A stretch of 64,000 bases of DNA from a virus (lineage: Duplodnaviria; Caudoviricetes): positions 41-64,040 of the IMG/VR virus record IMGVR_UViG_3300044695_005922; one strand, given 5' to 3'. The notes below the pieces were generated by a model. That model searched no databases. It saw only the letters and a list, made by a program, of their open reading frames with translations, and was not told the DNA's origin. Shown here one piece after another: positions 28,690-52,578 of this stretch (position 1 is its first letter; each line of letters starts with the position of its first letter). A program made the translations under genes and the position numbers.

Positions 28690-29367
28690 ATGATTTTACT
28701 ATTAGGTGATATTCACGGTGATTATAAAGTATTAGAGCGTGCGGCTAAATTGGCAGAAGAGGTTGGTGCTGCGGCTGTGATACAAGTCGGTGATTTTGGA
28801 TTGTTCCGTGGATATGGAATGTCCAATGAAATTCCATTTGTGAAAGTCGCAAAGGAAAGTGCGGTACCAATTTATTTCATCGACGGAAATCATGACGATT
28901 GTGACCGATGGTTGGAGTACACAGAAGTTACAGAAGTACTCACCGGGGCCAATCTATTCTATGTTCCCCGTGGTACTGTAATGGAACTTGATGGACGAAC
29001 TATTGCGTTCATGGGTGGTGCTGCCTCGATTGATAAAGCATGGAGATTGCAGAGTGGTGCTCACTGGACAGAAAAAGAAAACATCAGCCCACAGGAAATC
29101 TTGAAGGTATTGGATAATGCACAAGGTAAAACAATTGATTTGTTCATCACACATTGTCCCCCACACTCGGTCATTGAGGAAAACTTTGACCCACGAAATA
29201 AACTGTGGTTTGAAGTTGGTTTGGATTGGACCGACCCCAACCAATTAGTTATTGAAGAACTGTGGCATAAGTTGGGTACTCCTATGGTGTATTCCGGACA
29301 CATGCACCGTCGTGTACAGGGAATGACGTATAGAATTTTAGATATAAATGAACTTTTGGCCGTTTGA
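28690..29367 (+). CDS. Calcineurin-like metallophosphoesterase
   Basis: GDIHG, VGDFG, DGNHD, THCPP, GHMH. Confidence 0.9.
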   Translation: MILLLGDIHGDYKVLERAAKLAEEVGAAAVIQVGDFGLFRGYGMSNEIPFVKVAKESAVPIYFIDGNHDDCDRWLEYTEVTEVLTGANLFYVPRGTVMELDGRTIAFMGGAASIDKAWRLQSGAHWTEKENISPQEILKVLDNAQGKTIDLFITHCPPHSVIEENFDPRNKLWFEVGLDWTDPNQLVIEELWHKLGTPMVYSGHMHRRVQGMTYRILDINELLAV

Positions 29368-36386: not shown

Positions 36387-37157
36387 ATGAAAATAGCACT
36401 TTGTTTATCTGGCCAACCTCGTGGATTGCCTTTGTCATTAAAAATGTTAAAGGCAAACCTCGTTGGTATAGAAGATATGGATATCTTCTTACACGCATGG
36501 TTTGACCCAAATACTATTGGTCAACCATACGATAGTGCGCAAGCACATCAACAAGGTAGAGTAGGATTGGTTCATCCACAAACGGAAGAGATGTTACTCA
36601 GTCTTAATCCAAAAGATTATATCTTTGAACCACAGAAGGAATTTCCATTCGCACGTAGGTTCACATCACCACCAGAAGCAAATCAAGAACGTATGGCTAG
36701 TATCTTCTATTCAATCTATACAGCGAATATGTTGAAGAAGCGATACGAACTGTTAAATGGATTTGAATATGATTTGGTGATTCGTGCAAGATATGATTTG
36801 TGGTACGAGAATCCTATCAATGTAATGGATTATTTGGAACAATCACGAACACATATCGTCACCGCAGATAAGTTTCAGGGGATTCGTAATGACCCAAACT
36901 TTCATCAAGGTGGATATACGATGACGGATATATTCGCATTCTCCACATCAAAGAATATGGATGTGTTCTGTGACACCTATCCACACTTTTCCTTTATCCA
37001 TTCACAGATTCAGATTCCCTATGGTGAAAACTATATCGGATATCGTGTACGAGTAATGGGTGGAATCGAAGCATACTGTGCTCCGTTCAACTACGAAATC
37101 ATGCATCGTGTAGTAAATATCAACAATATAGAAGAATTGGAAAAGCAGTACGCATGA
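36387..37157 (+). CDS. Putative glycosyltransferase (KIALCLSGQPR type)
   Basis: KIALCLSGQPR, DIFLHAW, YDLVIRARYD. Confidence 0.65.
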   Translation: MKIALCLSGQPRGLPLSLKMLKANLVGIEDMDIFLHAWFDPNTIGQPYDSAQAHQQGRVGLVHPQTEEMLLSLNPKDYIFEPQKEFPFARRFTSPPEANQERMASIFYSIYTANMLKKRYELLNGFEYDLVIRARYDLWYENPINVMDYLEQSRTHIVTADKFQGIRNDPNFHQGGYTMTDIFAFSTSKNMDVFCDTYPHFSFIHSQIQIPYGENYIGYRVRVMGGIEAYCAPFNYEIMHRVVNINNIEELEKQYA

Positions 37158-37936
37158 AGATAGGAGTATGTTTATCTGGACATTATAGAAATTTTGATTA
37201 TAATTACGATTCTTGGGATAAATTATTATTCTCAAAACACGATTGTGATGTATTTTTACATACGTGGGATGTGATGGGAAATCGTAAAAAATCAGATGAT
37301 GTACACGTTGTAGAGAACCTAGACAAATTAATACATACAGAAACAGAGTTAAAACAAAAATATAATCTTACCGATGTAGTAATACAACCTTACGAAGAAC
37401 CACTACAAGAATTTTTAGATAAAAGTAAGAGAGTTAGAAAACTACGAAACGAGGCAGGTGTATCACAAAACAGTATAGATTGGACAACTCGACGAGTAAC
37501 TCATCTATACTCTATGTGGTACAAAGCATTAAAGTGTTTTGAGTTATTAGAGTCACACAGTACAGATTATGATTTGGTAATAAAATGTAGACCAGATATT
37601 AAATTAAAAGACAGTTTTAATTTAGACGATATAGATTTGGAATGTATTAATTGGCCGTGGTATAACTCAACAAAAGAACACTACTCAGAACCACACGATT
37701 ACTATGCTGTGGGTAATTTTGATAATATGAAAGTATACAATAACTTGTATAATCATATAGAAGAGATGGAATCTGTATTAGAACTAGAAAAACCAACACG
37801 TTCAGCAGGGAATAACGTAGAGATACCAGGTGTAGATAGGTTTTTGAATCCACATACATTATTATTTTTTTACGTAAAACATATGGGACTACCATACAAT
37901 ACAGTAATAAATCATTTAGAATTGACGCGAGGATAG
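37154..37936 (+). CDS. Putative glycosyltransferase, paralog of the previous gene
   Basis: KIGVCLSGHYR, DVFLHTW, YDLVIKCRPD. Confidence 0.65.
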   Translation: MKIGVCLSGHYRNFDYNYDSWDKLLFSKHDCDVFLHTWDVMGNRKKSDDVHVVENLDKLIHTETELKQKYNLTDVVIQPYEEPLQEFLDKSKRVRKLRNEAGVSQNSIDWTTRRVTHLYSMWYKALKCFELLESHSTDYDLVIKCRPDIKLKDSFNLDDIDLECINWPWYNSTKEHYSEPHDYYAVGNFDNMKVYNNLYNHIEEMESVLELEKPTRSAGNNVEIPGVDRFLNPHTLLFFYVKHMGLPYNTVINHLELTRG

Positions 37937-38819: not shown

Positions 38820-39455
38820 ATGTTATCAGAAAAAATTAAAATAGTACTGGAAGATATCCGTAACGGTAAACCAATCATCGTCGTAGATAGTTACGATAGA
38901 GAAAATGAAGGTGATTTGATGATTGCCGCCGAAAAAGCAACACCAGAAACACTGGCTTTTATTGCACGCGAAGCCCGTGGAATTATGTGTATTCCTACAC
39001 CAAAGTTTATGTTAGACCGTTTGGAAATTCCAATGAGTCCATCTAACAATAACGATAAGTTCTCGACTCCATTCACCGTCAGTATTGACGCACGTGATGG
39101 TGTCACTACGGGTGTAAGTGTGGAAGATCGTATGGTCACGATTGGATTGGTATTAGATGAAAACACCAAACCAGAACAACTCGCATACCCAGGTCACTTG
39201 TTCCCACTTCGCCCTCGTCCTGGTTTGTTGAAGGAACGGCAAGGTCATACCGAAGCATCTGTTCAACTTGCTATGATGGCTGGAACGAAACCAGTTGCAA
39301 TCATTTGTGAGATTATGAATAATGATGGTAGTATGGCACGAGTTCCAGACCTCGTTCCTTACGCAGAACGATGGGCATTGAATACGATTTCTATTGATGA
39401 AGTCATCGAATACTGTAATGAAATTGGTTGGGAACCACCAATTCAAGTTGGATGA
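38820..39455 (+). CDS. ribB: 3,4-dihydroxy-2-butanone 4-phosphate synthase
   Basis: DRENEGDL, FTVSIDA..TTGVS..DR, PGHLFPL, RQGHTEASV, ICEIMN.DGSMAR. Confidence 0.95.
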   Translation: MLSEKIKIVLEDIRNGKPIIVVDSYDRENEGDLMIAAEKATPETLAFIAREARGIMCIPTPKFMLDRLEIPMSPSNNNDKFSTPFTVSIDARDGVTTGVSVEDRMVTIGLVLDENTKPEQLAYPGHLFPLRPRPGLLKERQGHTEASVQLAMMAGTKPVAIICEIMNNDGSMARVPDLVPYAERWALNTISIDEVIEYCNEIGWEPPIQVG

Positions 39456-39458
39456 TTT

Positions 39459-40445
39459 ATGGAAAAGTTGGTCACACGAGCATACAATAGATTTGAAATA
39501 GATGAAACGCGAGGGGTTGTTCGGAAATTAAGTTCCACCGAACGACTTCGTGATGAGATATTATATTATGTAAAATTACAAAAGTATCATCCATCACAAG
39601 CAGTATTTTTTCCAAGATTACTCGATCACGTAGAACCGTTGATAGCAGACTTTTGGATGGATTTAGAATTGTATAGTTATCCAAACGTTGGTAATTATTT
39701 GTTTGGTGACAAAATTATGCCGTCGTGGTCTGAATTTTTCCTTAATTTACGAAACATCCTTGTGTCGTGGTCTAATATTAGTCCACGAGTTAAGTGGACC
39801 GACGAAGAAATTCGTGACGCGGCGTACGATATGTACATCACAAAAACAGAACGTGAGTATGGTAATTTTTATTCTGGATGGCACGATAAGTTTGATTCGT
39901 TATTTATTGACCAAGTTCGCACACATTCAGTATACATTAACAATAAACAATACTCCATGTTCGAAGTAATCTGGCCACAAATTAAGAATTACATCGAACA
40001 AAATATGTTAACTTTTACTCCATCACTTATACACGGTGATTGTTGTTTCAGTAACATTTTATATGGTGAGGATAAAAATATTATTCGTTTCATAGATCCT
40101 CGTGGTTCATTTGGTAAACTTGGAAATTACGGTGATATTCGATACGATATAGCCAAACTGTATCATTCATTAGACGGAACGTATGAAGCATTCATTACTG
40201 ATAAGTTTAAGGTTACAGCGAATGGGAATGCCTATCAATTGGACATTAAGGATGACGGTGAACTTGATTGGGCATTGAATGAGTTTGAATATATTTTCTT
40301 TCCAATGTTTAATAAGAAGGAAATAAAAATTATCCAAGGATGTATCTTTATTGGAATGTGTGCTCGTCATTATGATAGTCTGGAAAGACAACGAGCAATG
40401 TACCTCACAGGTATAAGATTATTAAACGAGGCATTGGAATTATGA
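39459..40445 (+). CDS. APH/choline-kinase-fold phosphotransferase of capsule loci
   Basis: TRAYN, IHGDCCFSNIL, FIDPRG, GDIRYDIAKLYHS. Confidence 0.8.
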   Translation: MEKLVTRAYNRFEIDETRGVVRKLSSTERLRDEILYYVKLQKYHPSQAVFFPRLLDHVEPLIADFWMDLELYSYPNVGNYLFGDKIMPSWSEFFLNLRNILVSWSNISPRVKWTDEEIRDAAYDMYITKTEREYGNFYSGWHDKFDSLFIDQVRTHSVYINNKQYSMFEVIWPQIKNYIEQNMLTFTPSLIHGDCCFSNILYGEDKNIIRFIDPRGSFGKLGNYGDIRYDIAKLYHSLDGTYEAFITDKFKVTANGNAYQLDIKDDGELDWALNEFEYIFFPMFNKKEIKIIQGCIFIGMCARHYDSLERQRAMYLTGIRLLNEALEL

Positions 40446-41212
40446 ACGTCTTAGTGTTAATGGCTGGTAGGGGTCAGCGTTTTGTAAACGAAGGATACAA
40501 AGACCCAAAACCATTAATTCAAATAAATGGTAAGACAATCTTACAATGGACAACAGAATCATGTCCATATATTCGTCACGATGGAAAGGGACAGTCGAGT
40601 AACATTCATTTATATTTTGCAGTCTTGCAAGAACATTTGGATGCTGGGTTGGATAAATTTTTATATTCCATTTACGGTCGTAACATAGAAATCATTCCGT
40701 TTAAAGAAATTACTTCGGGAAGTTTGGACACCGCAAGACAAGCAGCATCTCGTATGTGGCACAAAACTGATGACTTATTGGTTCTTGATTCCGATAACAA
40801 ATATAATCATAATGGTGTTGATGATTTTATTCGTGGTATTAAATTTAAGAGTAATGCAGTCGCGGTAGCATGTTTCGATAATCCAGACAAATCATTACCC
40901 AATAAATGGTCAAACGTTATAATTGAAGATGGAAAGGCTGTGGGTATTCGTGAAAAGGATGATTCGTGGGTTCACCACCCAACAATGATTGGAATATTTT
41001 ATTTCAGTCAAACACAATTCTTCACGGAATATGCAAAGTTTATTATGGAATTTAACAAACCAGTTGAATTTAATGGTAACGCAGAGTATTATATGAGTAT
41101 GGTGGCCTCGTATAATGTGAGTGTCGGAGTTCCAGTATACGTACATACCGTTACTGATGTGGTACCTCTTGGTACACCAGCGGACGTAAAAGCCTTTGAG
41201 GGTACATTATGA
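40442..41212 (+). CDS. Sugar-phosphate nucleotidyltransferase
   Basis: LMAGRGQRF..GY..PKPLI, EK, EYY, LGTP. Confidence 0.85.
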   Translation: MNVLVLMAGRGQRFVNEGYKDPKPLIQINGKTILQWTTESCPYIRHDGKGQSSNIHLYFAVLQEHLDAGLDKFLYSIYGRNIEIIPFKEITSGSLDTARQAASRMWHKTDDLLVLDSDNKYNHNGVDDFIRGIKFKSNAVAVACFDNPDKSLPNKWSNVIIEDGKAVGIREKDDSWVHHPTMIGIFYFSQTQFFTEYAKFIMEFNKPVEFNGNAEYYMSMVASYNVSVGVPVYVHTVTDVVPLGTPADVKAFEGTL

Positions 41213-41589
41213 TATTTGCATTTGACCTGGACAATACTATCTGTGAAAATAAAACGGGTGACATGACATACGCAGATGTCAAACCATTTCCAGAAGCATT
41301 AGAAACATTACGATGGTTGAGAGAAGAAGGGCACACCATTATTCTTCATACCGCACGACATATGAAAACTGGTGGTGGTAATCAAGGAAAAGTATTAAAG
41401 TTACAAGGTAAAGTATTATTTGATTGGTTGGAAAAGTGGGATATACCATACGATGAATTGTGGTGGAGTAAACCTCACGCCGATTTAATAATAGATGATG
41501 CAGTACATAGACATACAGATTGGGAAACCTCAATCTTAGCAATAAAAGATAGAATAAACAAAGGACCAAGAACCGTGGAGAATCCATAA
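41209..41589 (+). CDS. HAD phosphatase, EcbF/BcbF capsule-biosynthesis type
   Basis: FDLDNTI..YADVKP..HTAR.M..WL..IPYDEL..KP..IDD. Confidence 0.85.
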   Translation: MIFAFDLDNTICENKTGDMTYADVKPFPEALETLRWLREEGHTIILHTARHMKTGGGNQGKVLKLQGKVLFDWLEKWDIPYDELWWSKPHADLIIDDAVHRHTDWETSILAIKDRINKGPRTVENP

Positions 41590-42470
41590 TGTCACAACCA
41601 ACATTCTTTTTTGACACAGCAGACACCGACTATATCCGTAAGATTTGGGACAAGTTGGGTAAATATATTGACGGTAGTTCCGTCATCGGAATCACTACCA
41701 ATCCAAACGCATTGGCAAAGGTCAACTGCGATACATTGGATAAGTTTGAAACACTTGTTCCACAAATGACCTCACTTGTTAAGGAACTTCGTGGTGATGG
41801 TCCGGACGGATTGGTATACGTCCAAGTCCCAAATTCAGTTATGGAAGAAGAAGATATTATTCGGTGGGCACAATACGTTGACCAGTTCAACGGTAATGGT
41901 GCAGCTATGGCATTGAAGATTCCACATTTCAGTTATGTACTTCGAATCACCGACGCACCAGAACTCCGTAAGTTATATCTAAATGTAACAGGTGTTTCTG
42001 ATGCAAATACCATCATTAAATCGTTGAGTTATCAAAGTGTATTCTTCGCTAGTATCATTCCAGGACGTATGGAAGAAGTTGGCATTGATGCAGATGCACA
42101 TTTGGAATATTTGGCAAACCAACAAATCCAACGTCATCAAAATATCATCGCTGGTAGTATGAGAACAATTGATGGATTAAAGAAATCTATTTACTATCAC
42201 ACCGTACCAACAATCGGTAGTCGTGTTTGGGATTTAATTGATGCAGAAAATCGTTGGGAGGAATTTGCTTCATACTGGAATTATACATATTCGGTGGTTG
42301 ACTTCCCACAAGCAGATTATACTCCATTGGTAACTGACAAGAATCTTGATTTGAGTAAGCAGTTCTTCAATCAAATGGACCAGTTGGGTCAATCACTACA
42401 CGAAGAATTCATGAGTACCAAGTCGGCAGAATCATTGGGTGATTTTGCAAAGATACAATTTACTACTTAA
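41589..42470 (+). CDS. Transaldolase/fructose-6-phosphate aldolase family protein
   Basis: FFDTAD, GITTNP, LKIP (Schiff-base Lys), NVT, PGRM, AGSMR. Confidence 0.75.
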   Translation: MSQPTFFFDTADTDYIRKIWDKLGKYIDGSSVIGITTNPNALAKVNCDTLDKFETLVPQMTSLVKELRGDGPDGLVYVQVPNSVMEEEDIIRWAQYVDQFNGNGAAMALKIPHFSYVLRITDAPELRKLYLNVTGVSDANTIIKSLSYQSVFFASIIPGRMEEVGIDADAHLEYLANQQIQRHQNIIAGSMRTIDGLKKSIYYHTVPTIGSRVWDLIDAENRWEEFASYWNYTYSVVDFPQADYTPLVTDKNLDLSKQFFNQMDQLGQSLHEEFMSTKSAESLGDFAKIQFTT

Positions 42471-42486
42471 ACAGTTGCTTGATTAA

Positions 42487-43218
42487 ATGAATATTATTAT
42501 TCCAATGGCTGGTGAGGGGACTCGTGTAAAAAGCACGGTCCCCAAACCACTAGTAGAAGTATTACCAGGTAAAGTTATGATTGAAATGGCATTGGAATCG
42601 TTGAACATAGATGGCCATTATTGTTTTATTGTTCGTAGATACAACAATCAAGATTGGAATGTGGCTCTTCGTGATGCGATTCGTAAAACCGTTGGTCAGG
42701 CTGTTGTAGTAGAAATTGATTACCTTACCGATGGTCCAGCCATTTCAGCGTTACATGCTCCACAATTATTTTTTGGAGAAACTGATTTATTAGTTACCAA
42801 CTGTGACCAAATCATGCATTGGGACGCCGATAAGTTTATTGAGTTTACCAAAACCACCGATGCTGTTGGTGCAGTGGTGACCTACGAAACTAACACGCCT
42901 AAAAATAGTTACGCGTTGGTGGCTAGTGTAGAACACAAATATCCAAAATTCACAATGGTAAAGGAAAAGGAAGTGATTAGTAACTATTCACTGAATGGTA
43001 TTCACTGGTGGAAGTATGGCAAAGATTTCGCATCTTCGGTACATACTATGAAACAAGTGAAAGACACTGTTAATGGTGAATATTATATTGGTCCCTCATA
43101 CAACTATCTGGACGGAACTAAACGAGTATACGATATAACTCCGTCCGAACACTATGCAGTAGGAACCTTGGAAGATATTGAACGATACAGAGCATTATAT
43201 GGAAATAAAAAGAATTGA
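42487..43218 (+). CDS. Sugar-phosphate nucleotidyltransferase, second copy
   Basis: IIPMAGEGTR..PKPL, TDGPA, NCDQ, KEK, NGEYYIGPSYN, VGT. Confidence 0.85.
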   Translation: MNIIIPMAGEGTRVKSTVPKPLVEVLPGKVMIEMALESLNIDGHYCFIVRRYNNQDWNVALRDAIRKTVGQAVVVEIDYLTDGPAISALHAPQLFFGETDLLVTNCDQIMHWDADKFIEFTKTTDAVGAVVTYETNTPKNSYALVASVEHKYPKFTMVKEKEVISNYSLNGIHWWKYGKDFASSVHTMKQVKDTVNGEYYIGPSYNYLDGTKRVYDITPSEHYAVGTLEDIERYRALYGNKKN

Positions 43219-43531
43219 AGATATGACTCGTGGATGGTTTATTGGAAACTTTACGCCATCCGTATTGATGACCAGTGATTTTGAAGTCGGATATCTTCGT
43301 CATAAAAAAGGTGAAATCTGGGGTAAGCATTATCACAAGAGGGCTATAGAAATTAATTATTTAATTCGTGGCAAGATGCGAATACAAGGACAGCTATTGA
43401 CAACAGGAGATATATTTACTATATTTCCGTATGAAATAGCAGACCCAGAATTTTTAGAAGATTGTGAATTAATTGTTGTTAAATTACCGTCCGTCATAGG
43501 CGACAAATACGAGGTCACAGACAAACAATGA
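43199..43531 (+). CDS. Cupin
   Basis: RGWFIGNF.P..HYHK..E..G..VVKLPS..DKY. Confidence 0.75.
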   Translation: MEIKRIEDMTRGWFIGNFTPSVLMTSDFEVGYLRHKKGEIWGKHYHKRAIEINYLIRGKMRIQGQLLTTGDIFTIFPYEIADPEFLEDCELIVVKLPSVIGDKYEVTDKQ

Positions 43532-44757
43532 GCGTAAATATTTTTACAAGAGATATTGATTTATCCAAATATTTTATAGTTAAGTACTTCCTTGCAGGGA
43601 AAACTTCACTACGAGATGCCGCGTGGAATTTGGCAATTGGTCAAAGCATCGGTAATCCGAACAATCGTAGTGTATGGGAAACTGACCAGATGTTTCGTGA
43701 CCATAGTTGTTTTGTTCTCGCTGATGAAAATGAATTGAAGTCGAAGTTTTCCGGTGAAGTTGATATCGCATTCCCACTAGAAAATCTAGACTTGGAAGAA
43801 GATGGTATCTCACAAATCCTCTGCCACATCGCCGGTGGCCAAGTTGATATTCTGGAAATTGAACAGTGTCATGTGTTGGATATAACACTACCTGCACATA
43901 TTGAACAACAGTTTACATTGAAACCAGCATATGGTATTGATGGATTCCGTAAGTTTAATGGTGTCGAAGGTAAACCATTCTTCGGTGGTATTATCAAACC
44001 CAAGGTTGGAATGAGTCCAGAAGTATTGTTAGAAGCTGTGAAGGAAATGGTGTATGGTGGTGTAAACTTTATTAAAGAAGATGAACTCCTTGGTAGTCCG
44101 GCACATTGTCCGTTGACAAAGAGAGTTCCACTGATTACCAACTGGTTGGCGAATAACGCCCCGAATGTAATGTACACATTCTGTATTAATGGTGACAGTC
44201 CGTACGCACTACAACGAGCACAATTCGTTTCAGATGAAGGTGGATTGGGTGTTCATATTAACGTGTGGAGTGGATTGGGTGCATATCGTGCAATCCGTAA
44301 ACAGAATCCTAATCTGTGGATTCACTTCCAGAAGTCTGGGGATAAATTCTTCACTGACCGTCGTGCTCCGAATCATATCTACTGGCCCGTTATCTGTAAG
44401 ATTGCTGGATGGTCGGGGTCTGATTCTATTCACGCGGGGATGATTGGTGGATATATGAATCAAGATGACACAGAACTACAAGATGCCTTGAAGGTGTTGT
44501 GGAACTACAATGTTATCCCCGCACTCAGTTGTGGAATGCATCCTGGATTAGTCCAACATATTAACGGATTACTTGATAGTCATAACTGGATGGCAAACGT
44601 GGGTGGTGCAATGCATGGACATCCGATGGGTACACTCGCCGGTGGATTGGCAATGCGTCAAGCAATTGATGGTAACCACGGAGCAGAATATGACGCAGCT
44701 GTTAAGAAGTGGGGATACAAAGCAGTCAACGCTGATTTACAATACAGAATTTTCTAA
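43528..44757 (+). CDS. RuBisCO-like protein (form IV)
   Basis: LAIGQSIG, GIIKPKVG, FIKEDE, IHFQKSG, HAGMIGGY, SCGMHPG, VGGAMHGHPMG. Confidence 0.9.
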   Translation: MSVNIFTRDIDLSKYFIVKYFLAGKTSLRDAAWNLAIGQSIGNPNNRSVWETDQMFRDHSCFVLADENELKSKFSGEVDIAFPLENLDLEEDGISQILCHIAGGQVDILEIEQCHVLDITLPAHIEQQFTLKPAYGIDGFRKFNGVEGKPFFGGIIKPKVGMSPEVLLEAVKEMVYGGVNFIKEDELLGSPAHCPLTKRVPLITNWLANNAPNVMYTFCINGDSPYALQRAQFVSDEGGLGVHINVWSGLGAYRAIRKQNPNLWIHFQKSGDKFFTDRRAPNHIYWPVICKIAGWSGSDSIHAGMIGGYMNQDDTELQDALKVLWNYNVIPALSCGMHPGLVQHINGLLDSHNWMANVGGAMHGHPMGTLAGGLAMRQAIDGNHGAEYDAAVKKWGYKAVNADLQYRIF

Positions 44758-44766
44758 GAGAATACT

Positions 44767-45426
44767 ATGAATTTACTTGACAGAACGAATGATATTTTAT
44801 CAAAGGTAACCAAGTTACCCACCGATATTTATGGACTAAAATATCTTCCCTCATTGGAACCTAGCATTTCCAATGATACCGATTGGTTAGGTGACTTTGA
44901 TGCTTCACCCAATGTACATTTTTCGTCACTCAATCATGAAGCATTAAAATATGCATTTAATAAATTACCCCACCAACCTAAATTAATAGTTGAAATTGGT
45001 GTAGATGAATGTGGTGGTGTTTCCTCCACGAACACATTACTCGGTATCAAACCAACAGACTGCATGTATGTTGGAATGGATCTTAAACCCAAAACATATT
45101 TGAATAGTATAGAAAATAATATATTTACAATTCAAGGTGATTCCGCCAACTATGAAAGCTTGTATCAATTGATGGAATGGTACGGTCATGAACAAATTGA
45201 CTTTATGTTCGTGGATGGATGGCATTCTGTCAATCAAGTAATCAAAGAATGGAAGTATTGGGAAAAGATGATTCCAAACGGAGTGATGGCATTCCACGAT
45301 ACAAACTACCACCCAGGTCCAGTGGCATTGTTAGAGGCAATTGATACAGATATTTTCTCAGTTGAATGGTTTGGTCGTGGTGAAGCTGATTGGGGAGTCG
45401 GCGTGGTTCAGAGAATAACGGTATGA
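44767..45426 (+). CDS. Class I SAM methyltransferase (Methyltransf_24-like)
   Basis: VEIGV, IQGDS, IDFMFVDGWHS, GVMAFHD. Confidence 0.8.
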   Translation: MNLLDRTNDILSKVTKLPTDIYGLKYLPSLEPSISNDTDWLGDFDASPNVHFSSLNHEALKYAFNKLPHQPKLIVEIGVDECGGVSSTNTLLGIKPTDCMYVGMDLKPKTYLNSIENNIFTIQGDSANYESLYQLMEWYGHEQIDFMFVDGWHSVNQVIKEWKYWEKMIPNGVMAFHDTNYHPGPVALLEAIDTDIFSVEWFGRGEADWGVGVVQRITV

Positions 45427-48165: not shown

Positions 48166-48966
48166 ATGATTTCGGTTATTATTCCCTCGTATCGTAATCC
48201 AAAGTATTTGGACTTGTGTTTAAAGTCATTGGTTACTGGTCAATCCAACAAAAATCAAATTATTGTTATACTAGATGGATATGCCGAAGAAAGTTTGTCT
48301 GTGGTTGCTAAATACAAAGATATCGAAGTATTGGATTTAGAATCCAATCGTGGTATGCAAACCGCTATTAATATGGGTGTGTGGAGTGCAAACAATGAAA
48401 AGATATTCATCATTAATGATGACAATGTATTTGCACCAAGTTGGGATAGGAAATTGGAGTCGCAGTATAATCCAAATGAAATCGTAACAGTCAATCAAAT
48501 AGAACCCACTGGTCCTGGAATGTTTAACTTTCCCGTAATGGATTGTGGTCAGACTGTTGAAACATTTGATATGGAAAAATTTATTGACGAAGAACGTAAA
48601 CTTTCTTCCAACAAGAAAACACCAGATGGAAATATATTTCCATTCTTGATAAACAAGAAATGGTATATGGCCGTTGGTGGATTTGACACCTTCTACAATT
48701 CTCCAAATCTTTGTGATTGGGATTTCTTCGCAAAGTTAGAATTAATACCTGGTCTTACCAGATCACGTACACATTTCTTACATTCGTATCATTTTGGTTC
48801 TGTATCAACAAAGAAGAATTCGGAAGCACAGAAGTTCAGAGAAAGAGAACAATTTGCAATGCAACAATATTACTATAAGTGGGGTGTCCCTCCACACAAT
48901 GGCCTTAACAATACAAAATTCCCAAACGGGGATTCGTCTACTATAAGAGGATTACATGCAAATTGA
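48166..48966 (+). CDS. GT2 glycosyltransferase
   Basis: ISVIIPSY, INDD, VGGFD, DWDF. Confidence 0.88.
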   Translation: MISVIIPSYRNPKYLDLCLKSLVTGQSNKNQIIVILDGYAEESLSVVAKYKDIEVLDLESNRGMQTAINMGVWSANNEKIFIINDDNVFAPSWDRKLESQYNPNEIVTVNQIEPTGPGMFNFPVMDCGQTVETFDMEKFIDEERKLSSNKKTPDGNIFPFLINKKWYMAVGGFDTFYNSPNLCDWDFFAKLELIPGLTRSRTHFLHSYHFGSVSTKKNSEAQKFREREQFAMQQYYYKWGVPPHNGLNNTKFPNGDSSTIRGLHAN

Positions 48967-49339
48967 GTCACGTATCACAGGCAACTTAACAGTGTATAAA
49001 AAACCCGATATAGTTGCACAGATTGAACGAGAATATCCAGAGATGACCAAAGAATACTGGAATATTATGATGGAGCAATACGAAACGTTTTGTGTCAAAC
49101 AGTCCAACTATGGACCAAGTAATATTTCTGTTGGAACTTCGTTATCAACACCCGACGATGTTCAGTTGTCGTTGACTGGTTTGTGGTTCCGTATGAATGA
49201 TAAGATTCAACGGTTGAAGCAGTTGGTCGTATTAGGTAAGCAGGACAATGTAGGAGAGGCGATAGACGACACCTTTCAAGACCTATCGGTTTACGGGATT
49301 ATCTGTCAGTTGGTCAAGCGTGGTAAGTGGGCAAAATAA
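48956..49339 (+). CDS. DUF1599 / nucleotide-modification-associated domain protein
   Basis: KQSNYG..NI, RMNDKIQRL, E.IDDT..DLSVYGII. Confidence 0.75.
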   Translation: MQIESRITGNLTVYKKPDIVAQIEREYPEMTKEYWNIMMEQYETFCVKQSNYGPSNISVGTSLSTPDDVQLSLTGLWFRMNDKIQRLKQLVVLGKQDNVGEAIDDTFQDLSVYGIICQLVKRGKWAK

Positions 49340-51679: not shown

Positions 51680-51916
51680 ATGGAAATTAAACAACCTATA
51701 TTAAAAAGATTTCCACCTGGTGATCGGTGGGTAGAAATTGATAGTGATGGAAGGACGGTATATCCAACGTTAACCGCAGCACTGGAATATATGTTCCAAA
51801 AGACCAGATGTAAACAATACTTCCTTGACGCCGGTGAAGGAAGGGTGTATATTATAAAGCAGGAAGCAGACCCCGAACCAGAAATTCCAACATTTAGCAT
51901 TTACGGTGATCATTAA
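51680..51916 (+). CDS. Hypothetical protein
   Basis: RFPPGDRW; tandem ORF. Confidence 0.55.
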   Translation: MEIKQPILKRFPPGDRWVEIDSDGRTVYPTLTAALEYMFQKTRCKQYFLDAGEGRVYIIKQEADPEPEIPTFSIYGDH

Positions 51917-52578
51917 TGAAAGTCAAATTGGTTTCGTACACAACTCCGTGTGTCGAAGAGTTAGGTCCAGACAGTGACCTTACTGATTTAATAGCATTTT
52001 GTGCTCGTGTAAGTAATCCGAGCAACCAAACAAATACCGACACAACAGATAAACTTATTAGTTATCTGATTAAACATAAACATTGGTCACCATTTGAGAT
52101 GGCCAATCTTACACTTGAAATTGAAACCACCCGTGACATTGCCCGACAGATTCTCAGGCATCGTAGTTTCACCTTCCAAGAATTCAGTCAACGATATGCC
52201 GACCCTGTTAAAGAATTAACGTTTGAGAAGCGTGAAGCACGGTTACAAGACCAGAAGAATCGCCAGAATAGTATTGAAGTTGACGACGAACTGCTTCAAG
52301 CTAAATGGAACTCTATGCAAGAACTTGTATTAATTAACGCACGAAACGCATACAATTGGGCAATCGAAAACGGAATCGCCAAAGAAGTTGCCCGTGCAGT
52401 TCTTCCAGAAGGATTAACGACATCACGAATGTACGTAAACGGAACTTTAAGAAGCTGGATTCATTATATTGATATCAGAAGTGATGAAGCAACGCAGAAA
52501 GAACATCGGGAAATTGCTATCGCATGTGCAGAAGCCATTGGTAAATTATTTCCATTGATTACTAATTTTGCACACTAA
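51916..52578 (+). CDS. thyX: Flavin-dependent thymidylate synthase
   Basis: HWSPFE, RQILRHRSFTFQEFSQRY, EVARAVLP, TQKEHR. Confidence 0.96.
   Translation: MKVKLVSYTTPCVEELGPDSDLTDLIAFCARVSNPSNQTNTDTTDKLISYLIKHKHWSPFEMANLTLEIETTRDIARQILRHRSFTFQEFSQRYADPVKELTFEKREARLQDQKNRQNSIEVDDELLQAKWNSMQELVLINARNAYNWAIENGIAKEVARAVLPEGLTTSRMYVNGTLRSWIHYIDIRSDEATQKEHREIAIACAEAIGKLFPLITNFAH

Follow-up and report, generated by a model that had tools for sequence, protein, structure and literature searches.

A Phage RuBisCO-like Protein Encoded with a Nucleotidyltransferase and a Cupin: A Candidate Enzyme of Nucleotide-Sugar Synthesis

The RLP and Its Partner Genes

A 64-kb window of phage DNA, which is the whole stretch analyzed here and part of an IMG/VR virus record (IMGVR_UViG_3300044695_005922) estimated to be ~30% complete, encodes a 409-amino-acid (aa) homologue of the large subunit of RuBisCO, the carboxylase/oxygenase of ribulose 1,5-bisphosphate. 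The gene for this RuBisCO-like protein (RLP) occupies positions 43528-44757 of the + strand, on which almost all of the long open reading frames (ORFs) of the window lie. The protein matches the Pfam model RuBisCO_large (PF00016) at 6.9e-33 and 114.6 bits (cut-off 30.1) and RuBisCO_large_N (PF02788) at 8.8e-4 and 19.9 bits, slightly below the cut-off of 20.7. Ninety-nine PDB sequences match it at E<=1e-5, the best being the RLP 3nwr (1e-31). These matches place the protein in the RuBisCO large-subunit superfamily.

Two genes on the + strand lead into the RLP gene. The first (42487-43218) encodes NT2, a sugar-phosphate nucleotidyltransferase of 243 aa that scores 21.7 bits against PF00483 (cut-off 21.2), 3.9e-5 against PF12804, and 1.3e-37 against phrog_3980. 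NT2 has the NTP_transferase fold and its N-terminal G-x-G-x-R...K motif, with G9 and K20 invariant and G11 and R13 nearly so. A search of the PDB with the single NT2 sequence gave no match. The profile of its family, when used instead, finds 4evw, an uncharacterised NDP-sugar pyrophosphorylase from Vibrio cholerae (2e-32), followed by mannose-1-phosphate guanylyltransferases (~1e-10) and RmlA. The second gene (43199-43531) encodes a small metal-binding cupin of ~110 aa; ATG 43199 is the best start, although the listed ORF begins with TTG 43178. The cupin matches phrog_24762 at 1.5e-35, and its H-x-H...E ligands (H36, H38, and E43) are invariant in 23 aligned sequences. Its profile retrieves a quercetinase domain (6e-7) and a 113-aa mannose-6-phosphate isomerase (7.8e-5) from the PDB. 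These features assign it to the metal-binding cupin superfamily, although its single-sequence Pfam matches fall below cut-off, and no match of the window cupin to the Pfam family MannoseP_isomer was seen. The first-pass annotation of this DNA had described the RLP as coupled to a cupin and a nucleotidyltransferase, and the junctions show the coupling to be translational: the last 20 nt of NT2 (stop at 43218) lie within the cupin gene when this is read from ATG 43199, and the cupin stop overlaps the RLP start in the ATGA at 43528-43531.

Residue Pattern and Clade Membership

The residues of the RLP were mapped by alignment to the annotated form I large subunit of S. meliloti (L127) and to two bona fide RuBisCOs that are fused to ribose-1,5-bisphosphate isomerase (e2b2; P0155 and P0163). 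Residue identities come from the alignment, whereas the RuBisCO position numbers are given in what we take to be spinach numbering. Both lysines of the KPK motif are kept, with K157-P-K159 aligning with K175/K177. K183-E-D185-E186 aligns with K201-D-D203-E204, so that the carbamate lysine and two acidic metal ligands are also kept. In contrast, H266-F-Q268-K269 aligns with H292-x-H294-R295, which replaces H294 by Q and R295 by K. D272 stands at the position of H298, and H302 at that of H327, which is kept. At loop 6, G307-G308-Y309 places a tyrosine where Lys334 stands. S334-C-G336 aligns with S379-G-G381 and G359-G360 with G403-G404, N43-P44 is found at T65-W66, and G104 at N123. The glycines of the near phosphate site are kept, and the distal phosphate site is remodeled. 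All four motifs that had been named for this 409-aa RuBisCO-fold protein (KPK, KEDE, HFQK, and GGY) are confirmed by the alignment. The residues of a bona fide ribulose 1,5-bisphosphate (RuBP) carboxylase (K334, H294, R295, H298, N123, T65, and W66) are Y, Q, K, D, G, N, and P, respectively.

The same residue signature (QS-NP, GQ, KPK, KEDE, [HF]xQK..D, H, GGY, SCG, GG) recurs in 88 rows of a wider alignment, from phages to Nonomuraea and DPANN archaea. Phylogeny had been named as a check on the RLP, and it resolves a separate clade. A FastTree analysis of 187 rows, comprising matches of 340-520 aa and two trimmed e2b2 fusions and leaving out other fragments and longer fusions, unites the 88 signature rows and one truncated fragment with a Shimodaira-Hasegawa (SH)-like support of 99. 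In a quick IQ-TREE search of 68 rows picked by hand from the 187, all 28 signature rows are monophyletic, with an SH approximate likelihood-ratio test (SH-aLRT) value of 100. The clade sits within the non-carboxylating part of the IQ-TREE tree, and the annotated 3-oxo-isoapionate-4-phosphate decarboxylase (OiaX; L126) falls outside it. With the outgroup as root of the drawn tree, cellular sequences branch off first within the clade. A 583-aa protein outside the signature clade (P0210) has a TIR_2 domain (3.3e-13) fused to the N-terminus of its RLP, an architecture that might belong to a defense system.

Members of the clade are widespread. A word-index search returned 120 RLP clusters among the matches listed, at 75-88% identity and on contigs of up to 346 kb. 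IMG/VR holds at least 119 RLP loci, which include contigs of giant-virus metagenome-assembled genomes (MAGs) at ~52% identity, and a set of species-representative genomes holds 42 cellular loci. The cellular carriers include SAR11 (among them a complete Pelagibacter chromosome), DPANN archaea, the candidate phyla radiation (CPR; Beckwithbacteria and Saccharibacteria), Verrucomicrobia, Elusimicrobia, Nonomuraea rosea, and Azospirillum oleiclasticum. The residue signature is common to all of these viral and cellular members. A tblastn search with the RLP against 50,697 phage records gave no match, and a cultured phage with the RLP was not found. Some nominally cellular RLPs are nested among viral ones. 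A Saprospirales MAG contig (L084) encodes an RLP 73% identical to that of the window, and the RLP of the Pelagibacter chromosome (L092) pairs with a giant-virus MAG (GVMAG) sequence in the tree. Binned phage contigs, prophage-like islands, and recent exchange would each be a possible origin of these and other nested cellular loci.

The clade itself is not new. Jaffe, Castelle, Dupont & Banfield 2018 (Mol Biol Evol; PMC6389311) describe ~80 divergent phage "form IV-like" RLPs that group with Beckwithbacteria, lie on large myovirus-type contigs from many environments, and are of "possible functionality unclear". Because the signature clade contains a Beckwithbacteria locus (L096) together with viral contigs, it is almost certainly the clade of that study. 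New groups of RuBisCO homologues had been noted earlier in the Global Ocean Sampling paper. In the openly searchable literature, Jaffe 2018 is the only work on point for phage RLPs.

The scores of the RLP against curated NCBIfam models bear on whether it could be an auxiliary enzyme of catabolism or salvage (of methionine, nucleotides/AMP, or apiose-type sugars) or a true CO2-fixing RuBisCO. The best model is that of form III (152.7 bits against a cut-off of 497.45), while PRK04208 yields 135.4/438 and the form II-type PRK13475 yields 94.6/489. A best match to form III would fit such a role, as would the presence of the clade in DPANN and CPR, in which RuBisCO serves nucleotide salvage (Jaffe 2018, PMC6389311). 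However, the RLP lies far below every curated cut-off, including those of the methionine-salvage enzyme MtnW/YkrW (71.7/513.6 bits for TIGR03332 and 94.7/409 for NF007095) and of OiaX (115.5/700 for NF042437). Every carboxylase residue listed above is replaced, and neither methionine-salvage neighbors (MtnA/B/X/D) nor genes for e2b2, AMP phosphorylase, or a four-carbon acid kinase were found in the annotated RLP loci. A salvage enzyme or carboxylase is hardly credible on these data, and the view that the RLP is not a RuBP carboxylase, a methionine-salvage enzyme, or an OiaX is upheld by its scores and its own clade.

Linkage and Fusion in Viruses and Cells

Neighboring genes were counted over the 80 best loci of each viral search and over the 42 cellular loci; many of these loci are related, and the counts are not of independent events. 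With family hidden Markov models (HMMs), a nucleotidyltransferase (NTase) gene is detected within 3 kb of the RLP gene in 76 of the 80 viral and 38 of the 42 cellular loci, making it the most constant partner. Cupin genes are as frequent in viruses (76/80) and less so in cells (14/42). A protein resembling glycerophosphodiester phosphodiesterases (GDPD-like) is encoded within the same distance in 62/80 viral and 24/42 cellular loci, and a DUF7796-like protein in 38/80 and 9/42, respectively. The GDPD-like partner has 149 aa and carries the HRG / EN / ExD / HD motifs of these phosphodiesterases, with H6 R7 G8, N19, E35, D37, and H49 invariant; it has no Pfam match. Searching the 80 viral RLP loci with the island proteins of the window by tblastn gave the same figures for NT2 (76/80) and the cupin (76/80). 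Conversely, 555 viral cupin loci were confirmed, and among the 80 best of them 76 carry an RLP.

De novo clustering gives the usual viral order as NTase, cupin, RLP, the 149-aa GDPD-like protein, and a DUF7796-like protein of 260 aa. In many contigs this cassette is compact and lies amid replication-type genes, and the DUF7796-like family is found downstream of it in many other phages. Gene order varies by lineage: RLP-cupin-NTase is seen in Nonomuraea (L118) and a Sphingobacteriales MAG (L121) and, by tblastn only, in Elusimicrobia (L119) and Azospirillum (L120). In SAR11 the order is GDPD-like, NTase, RLP, NTase, with no cupin.

The linkage extends to outright fusion. One cluster of 128 members represents an RLP-NTase fusion; 11 of the 15 proteins listed have 667-671 aa, and the sources are Tara, MGnify, JGI, and ENA. 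A GDPD-like-RLP fusion of 546 aa occurs on 4 contigs. Both fusions keep KPK, KEDE, QKSG, and GGY. NTase family ORFs of 343-371 aa also exist. In GVMAG loci L063-L070 there is no separate cupin ORF, yet the cupin is matched at 36-44%, which suggests that these loci encode NTase-cupin fusions of ~350 aa. The contigs of these loci and of L077 carry an RLP of ~52% identity together with a GDPD-like gene. If the GVMAG binning is right, eukaryotic viruses, too, seem to be carriers among which the RLP cassette circulates.

The cellular surroundings are those of glycan synthesis. In SAR11, the RLP genes stand with GT17, GT61, methyltransferase, and RmlD-like genes directly after pheT and lepA. In Azospirillum they are accompanied by CysD/CysNC and GT41. 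In Nonomuraea rosea (L118, 5099-12923), the cassette lies by a phage-type integrase and is followed by a GT2, an NAD protein resembling S-adenosylhomocysteine hydrolase (AdoHcy-hydrolase-like), and a deoxynucleoside-kinase-like protein; this island may be mobile and concerned with nucleoside chemistry. A neighborhood analysis had been proposed for the clade, and the linkage of RLP homologues to nucleotide-sugar and glycan genes holds in both viruses and cells. Because of this linkage, the anabolic, sugar-activating setting that the first-pass annotation had assigned to the RLP is well founded.

Versions of the Module without the RLP

In cells, the cupin family extends far beyond the RLP: the genome set contains at least 534 confirmed cupin stretches, and only 6 of 79 cellular cupin loci have an RLP. 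The usual bacterial unit without an RLP comprises five genes: a GDPD-like protein (209 aa), a HAD of the beta-phosphoglucomutase (beta-PGM) family, an NTase, the cupin, and a second NTase. It is found in Campylobacter concisus (L244, 4979-8818), Mucilaginibacter rivuli (L268, 4999-8022), Helicobacter bilis (L236/L237), and Citrobacter sp. (L265). No member of this unit exceeds a curated NCBIfam cut-off, and the GDPD-like protein and the cupin are without any NCBIfam match. An orthology comparison of viral NT2 proteins with the two bacterial NTases gave 65 ties in 72 cases, with the position labels mixed.

The HAD and the RLP are distributed in a complementary manner. When redundant loci are removed and at least 3.5 kb is required on either flank, a beta-PGM-family HAD is encoded in 40/50 of the cellular cupin loci that lack an RLP, in 0/23 of the cellular RLP loci, and in 7/94 of the viral RLP loci; because these loci are related to each other, the counts describe a pattern and not a statistic. 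The RLP and the beta-PGM-family HAD are alternative parts of one module, and their alternation narrows which step the RLP can perform.

A version of the module without the RLP is also present in a cultured phage, cyanophage Bellamy (MF351863; L081, 4631-13914). Its gene 206, annotated as "phosphatase", encodes an NTase fused to an RpiB/LacAB sugar-phosphate isomerase that exceeds the cut-off of the RpiB subfamily model. Next come genes for the cupin and a DUF7796 protein, then for a double NTase and a GT61. A class II aldolase, for which L-ribulose-5-phosphate 4-epimerase is the best model, a HAD, and a GDPD-like protein are encoded after these, and PfkB and GHMP kinases are also present. This gene content points to pentose- or ketose-phosphate chemistry, and Bellamy is a possible experimental model. 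Two further viral cupin loci without an RLP contain NTase-HAD fusions. One of them also contains a PfkB kinase and a cytidylyltransferase-like gene, a combination that would follow an ADP-heptose-like logic.

The Glycan Island and the Transaldolase-like Gene

The surroundings of the RLP in the window had been called a glycan island, and the gene content bears this out. The island spans ~29.5 to 49 kb of the window (~20 kb) and encodes GT11, GT2, and two phrog_2170 glycosyltransferases. SDR epimerase/dehydratases, Methyltransf_24-type methyltransferases, and DUF7796 paralogues are each represented twice. One of the methyltransferases, which is Methyltransf_24/CmcI-like (PF13578, 1.4e-7), is encoded directly 3' of the RLP gene (44767-45426, + strand); a homologue occurs in 22 of the 80 viral RLP loci, which makes it a frequent but not a constant neighbor. 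The DUF7796-like paralogues (36387-37157 and 37154-37936, both on the + strand) match phrog_13607 at 1.9e-23 and PF25072 at 1.1e-5, the latter below cut-off. Their relatives fall in Atlas clusters named DUF7796 or capsular polysaccharide biosynthesis protein, and a profile search of the PDB with the family gave no meaningful match. At the upstream edge of the island lies a calcineurin-like metallophosphoesterase gene (28690-29367). At its downstream edge, a 127-aa ORF (48956-49339) has a weak match, below cut-off, to DUF1599, "nucleotide modification associated".

Elsewhere in the window are genes for a family-B DNA polymerase, an ATP-dependent ligase, and a virion structural protein, together with cobalamin/porphyrin-type ATPase genes, a gene set typical of large marine myovirus-like phages. 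The replication genes of the fragment are of T4 type. A megablast search of the window region at 49.6-57.9 kb against phage records gave no match. In a rival explanation, the NDP-sugar of the cassette would serve to hypermodify phage DNA and not a glycan, as in the hydroxycytosine arabinosylation of RB69-like phages. Many T4-like contigs carry the cassette alone amid replication-type genes with no adjoining classical glycosyltransferase, T4-like phages make NDP-arabinose from ribulose 5-phosphate (Ru5P) for their DNA (PMC13326640), and the weak DUF1599 match would agree with such a role. In SAR11, Nonomuraea, and Azospirillum, however, the same cassette is located within glycan clusters of the chromosome, and the island of the window has many genes for GT2/GT11-type glycosyltransferases along with sugar O-methyltransferase-like ones. 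Moreover, the only thymidylate synthase gene of the window encodes ThyX (51916-52578, 147.9 bits); a ThyA-like base-modifying synthase was not found in this part of a record that covers only ~30% of a genome. We regard DNA as an improbable target for the sugar.

Upstream of NT2, five genes on the + strand form a set of their own. They encode a stand-alone RibB, a 3,4-dihydroxy-2-butanone-4-phosphate (DHBP) synthase (38820-39455; PF00926, 5.1e-73; TIGR00506, 211.8 bits against a cut-off of 177), an APH-like kinase (39459-40445; APH, 7.4e-5), a nucleotidyltransferase identified by its NTase matches (NT1, 40442-41212), a small HAD phosphatase (41209-41589; TIGR01689, 1.8e-16, below cut-off), and a 293-aa class I aldolase resembling transaldolase/FSA (41589-42470). 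The last of these matches PHROG 440, "transaldolase", at 1.6e-14 and Pfam TAL_FSA at E 1e-3 and 18.9 bits, below the 27-bit cut-off, and a single-sequence search of the PDB gave no match at E<=0.1. NT2 starts 16 nt past its stop. The sole phage relative of the transaldolase-like protein at E<=1e-3 is a protein of cyanophage S-SKS1 (37% identity), with which it shares the motifs FFFDTA, TTNP, KIP, and SIIPGR; these may represent the Schiff-base lysine and the Asp/TTNP elements of the transaldolase/FSA family. Identification as an ordinary cyanophage talC was rejected, as the only phage match is the S-SKS1 gene, which lies inside the same module. In S-SKS1 (L082, 7001-10518), an NTase-RibB fusion, a kinase (39%), a HAD (48%), and the transaldolase-like protein are encoded in the order of the window, and the 14.7-kb stretch of S-SKS1 gave no sign of an RLP.

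Because S-SKS1 has this set in the same order without an RLP, the island is best read as two juxtaposed modules: module A (RibB, kinase, NT1, HAD, and the transaldolase-like protein) and module B (NT2, cupin, and RLP). The gene content of module A and of the S-SKS1 set suggests an NDP-activated unit made from ribulose 5-phosphate or dihydroxybutanone phosphate, a route that we have not seen described. The first-pass annotation had paired the RLP with the transaldolase in building a branched-chain or rearranged ketose by C-C bond chemistry. OiaC/OiaX-type RLPs, which Carter reportedly showed in 2018 to work on a branched sugar acid, lend some credence to this idea, as does the adjacency of RibB, which catalyzes a skeletal rearrangement of Ru5P, and an aldolase to the RLP unit in the window phage. 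Nevertheless, the transaldolase, RibB, and the kinase each accompany the RLP in only 4 of the 80 viral loci by tblastn, all four being near kin of the window, and in 0 of the 42 cellular loci. The corresponding S-SKS1 set stands without an RLP, and the OiaX reference lies outside the clade, with the RLP scoring 115.5 bits against its model where 700 are required. The transaldolase-like gene adjoins the RLP unit and is not part of it, and a joint C-C bond chemistry is very unlikely. What stands of the original interpretation as a whole is an anabolic sugar pathway distinct from methionine salvage, without the transaldolase as a partner.

Proposed Role of the RLP

We propose that the RLP enolizes a ketose phosphate, isomerizing or epimerizing it to supply a dedicated NDP-sugar pathway, a proposal that we consider evenly poised between right and wrong. 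Enolization is common to all members of the RuBisCO superfamily, and true RuBisCO isomerizes and epimerizes as a side reaction. Because the carbamate-lysine/Mg2+ site and both KPK lysines are kept, enolization is most likely retained, and the RLP would enolize a ketose phosphate, the half-reaction of the RuBisCO fold. Since Lys334, His294, and the N-domain residues for CO2 addition are gone, the enediolate would instead be re-protonated, which would make the RLP an isomerase or epimerase. Pentulose phosphates are favored because the enzymes that are displaced by the RLP or run parallel to it are RpiB, the ribulose-5-phosphate-epimerase-like aldolase, and RibB; the leading candidate substrate would be a pentulose phosphate from the pentose-phosphate pool of the host. 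The viral unit would consist of the RLP, NT2, and the cupin, usually with the GDPD-like phosphodiesterase-fold protein. The small metal cupin is a candidate aldose-ketose isomerase, as in bifunctional phosphomannose isomerase/GDP-mannose pyrophosphorylase (PMI/GMP) enzymes, and NT2 would catalyze the committed activating step. Overall, the unit would start from a common sugar phosphate and yield a rare sugar, or sugar phosphate, in NDP-activated form. Nearby glycosyl- and methyltransferases would then place the product on a glycan. Precedents for the proposal are the synthesis of CDP-6-D-fructose by an NTase (PMC10918830) and the route from Ru5P to NDP-arabinose in T4-like phages (PMC13326640).

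Two variants of this scheme can be envisaged. In the first, activation would follow the classical route via an anomeric sugar-1-phosphate. In the second, the terminal phosphate of an open-chain ketose would be activated directly. The RLP would then act either before or after the NTase step, and the GDPD-like protein would deal with the phosphodiester. Part of the second variant can be taken as a distinct explanation, in which the RLP acts after the NTase on an open-chain NDP-ketose (NDP-5-pentulose or NDP-6-hexulose), the phosphodiester-linked sugar phosphate is transferred, and the GDPD-like protein is a phosphotransferase or processing enzyme. The RLP-NTase fusion, the compact cassettes without a kinase, mutase, or redox enzyme, the phosphodiesterase-fold partner in 62/80 viral loci, and the combination of retained glycines at the near phosphate site with a remodeled distal phosphate site would all be accommodated by it. 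There is also a precedent in an NTase that makes CDP-6-D-fructose directly from fructose 6-phosphate (PMC10918830). Against it, the PDB relatives of the NTase profile beyond 4evw are sugar-1-phosphate enzymes, and the GDPD-like assignment is weak. We know of no RuBisCO-family enzyme with a nucleotide-linked substrate, a further argument against this explanation, which we regard as unlikely.

Several observations weigh against our proposal that the RLP isomerizes or epimerizes a ketose phosphate for NDP-sugar synthesis. No member of the clade has a known substrate, product, or activity. The cupin is missing from 28 of the 42 cellular RLP loci and is therefore not essential to the RLP step. The compact five-gene cassettes contain no kinase or mutase, which leaves the origin of a sugar-1-phosphate for a classical NTase unexplained. 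Because R295 and H298 of the distal phosphate site are changed, a bisphosphate or 5-phosphate is not obviously favored. The fold evidence for the GDPD-like protein is weak, consisting of a profile match to the GDPD 7e0v (2.5e-4) over residues 2-52, the N-terminal third, an Atlas lead of 0.85, and the motifs. Its gene was not found in the 64-kb window, where the best tblastn hit (E 0.006) is the metallophosphoesterase ORF and the best HMM hit has an E-value of 0.47. The relatedness of the loci behind the linkage counts also tempers their weight. Finally, the trees were built without MtnW/YkrW or DeepYkr references, the exclusion of which comes from HMM scores only.

A broader and more doubtful claim, which we advance tentatively, is that the whole clade is a globally abundant, isofunctional, anabolic nucleotide-sugar enzyme of marine and freshwater phages, giant-virus MAGs, SAR11, DPANN, and CPR. 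It may act on an open-chain NDP-ketose or replace a phosphomutase step, and the resulting rare sugar or sugar phosphate would mark cell-surface O-chains and, in phages, virions or DNA. All RLPs of assigned function known to us are enzymes of salvage or catabolism, active in methionine salvage or in apiose and related sugar-acid routes. If the proposal is true, the RuBisCO fold would gain its first function that is biosynthetic and directed at glycans. Gene order in >100 loci, as well as outright fusion, ties the RLP to a nucleotidyltransferase, and its clade lies in O-chain/glycan clusters of SAR11, which are among the most abundant bacteria of the sea, as well as in many large phages and giant-virus MAGs. 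Searches of the openly searchable literature for a link of RLPs with an NTase, a cupin, nucleotide sugars, giant viruses, or Pelagibacter gave nothing relevant among the papers listed, some of which were judged by title, and as far as these searches reach, the functional context of the clade is new. The function of a very abundant RLP clade is now directly testable. Its study could add a reaction to those known for the RuBisCO superfamily and could reveal a widespread sugar decoration that is probably relevant to phage-host recognition.

Comparison with Known Systems

The OiaX group comprises the nearest annotated characterized RLPs in our trees. OiaX-type RLPs and the window RLP are alike in fold and in the core of K175, K201, D203, and E204. 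However, the former keep H294, R295, and K334 and lose K177, whereas the window RLP shows the reverse pattern at those sites. OiaX-type RLPs are also catabolic and encoded beside four-carbon acid sugar kinases; no such neighbor was seen in the annotated loci or in the identified conserved clusters of the window clade, most clusters being unannotated. The 2,3-diketo-5-methylthiopentyl-1-phosphate (DK-MTP-1-P) enolase MtnW/YkrW, a non-carboxylating RuBisCO fold that only enolizes a phospho-ketone, is the mechanistic model for our proposal. Form III RuBisCO of the archaeal/CPR AMP pathway has both KPK lysines in common with the window RLP and is its best curated model. The bona fide RuBisCOs fused to e2b2 (P0155 and P0163) keep H294, R295, H298, K334, N123, and T65/W66, all of which are replaced in the window RLP.

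A second point of comparison is the bifunctional type II PMI/GMP, which consists of an NTase domain and a cupin domain. The likeness lies in an NTase that is paired or fused with a small metal cupin isomerizing a ketose phosphate, as the GVMAG loci would also have it, and in the profiles, in which NT2 retrieves mannose-1-phosphate guanylyltransferases and the cupin retrieves the 113-aa mannose-6-phosphate isomerase. The similarity is remote, however, and an RLP has no place in the PMI/GMP pathway. For module A, the kinase, NT1, and HAD match the logic of the phage route to NDP-arabinose from Ru5P, for which PMC13326640 gives an isomerase, an NTase-kinase, and a phosphatase in RB69, DLP3, and HY126. 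As described there, that route differs in using an SIS-type arabinose-5-phosphate isomerase, in having no RLP or cupin, and in its target, DNA. For the RLP clade itself, the accessible parts of Jaffe 2018 (PMC6389311) do not describe the gene neighborhood. Our analysis adds to that study the linkage to the NTase, the cupin, and the GDPD-like protein, the natural fusions, and the members of the clade in SAR11, DPANN, an actinomycete, and giant-virus MAGs.

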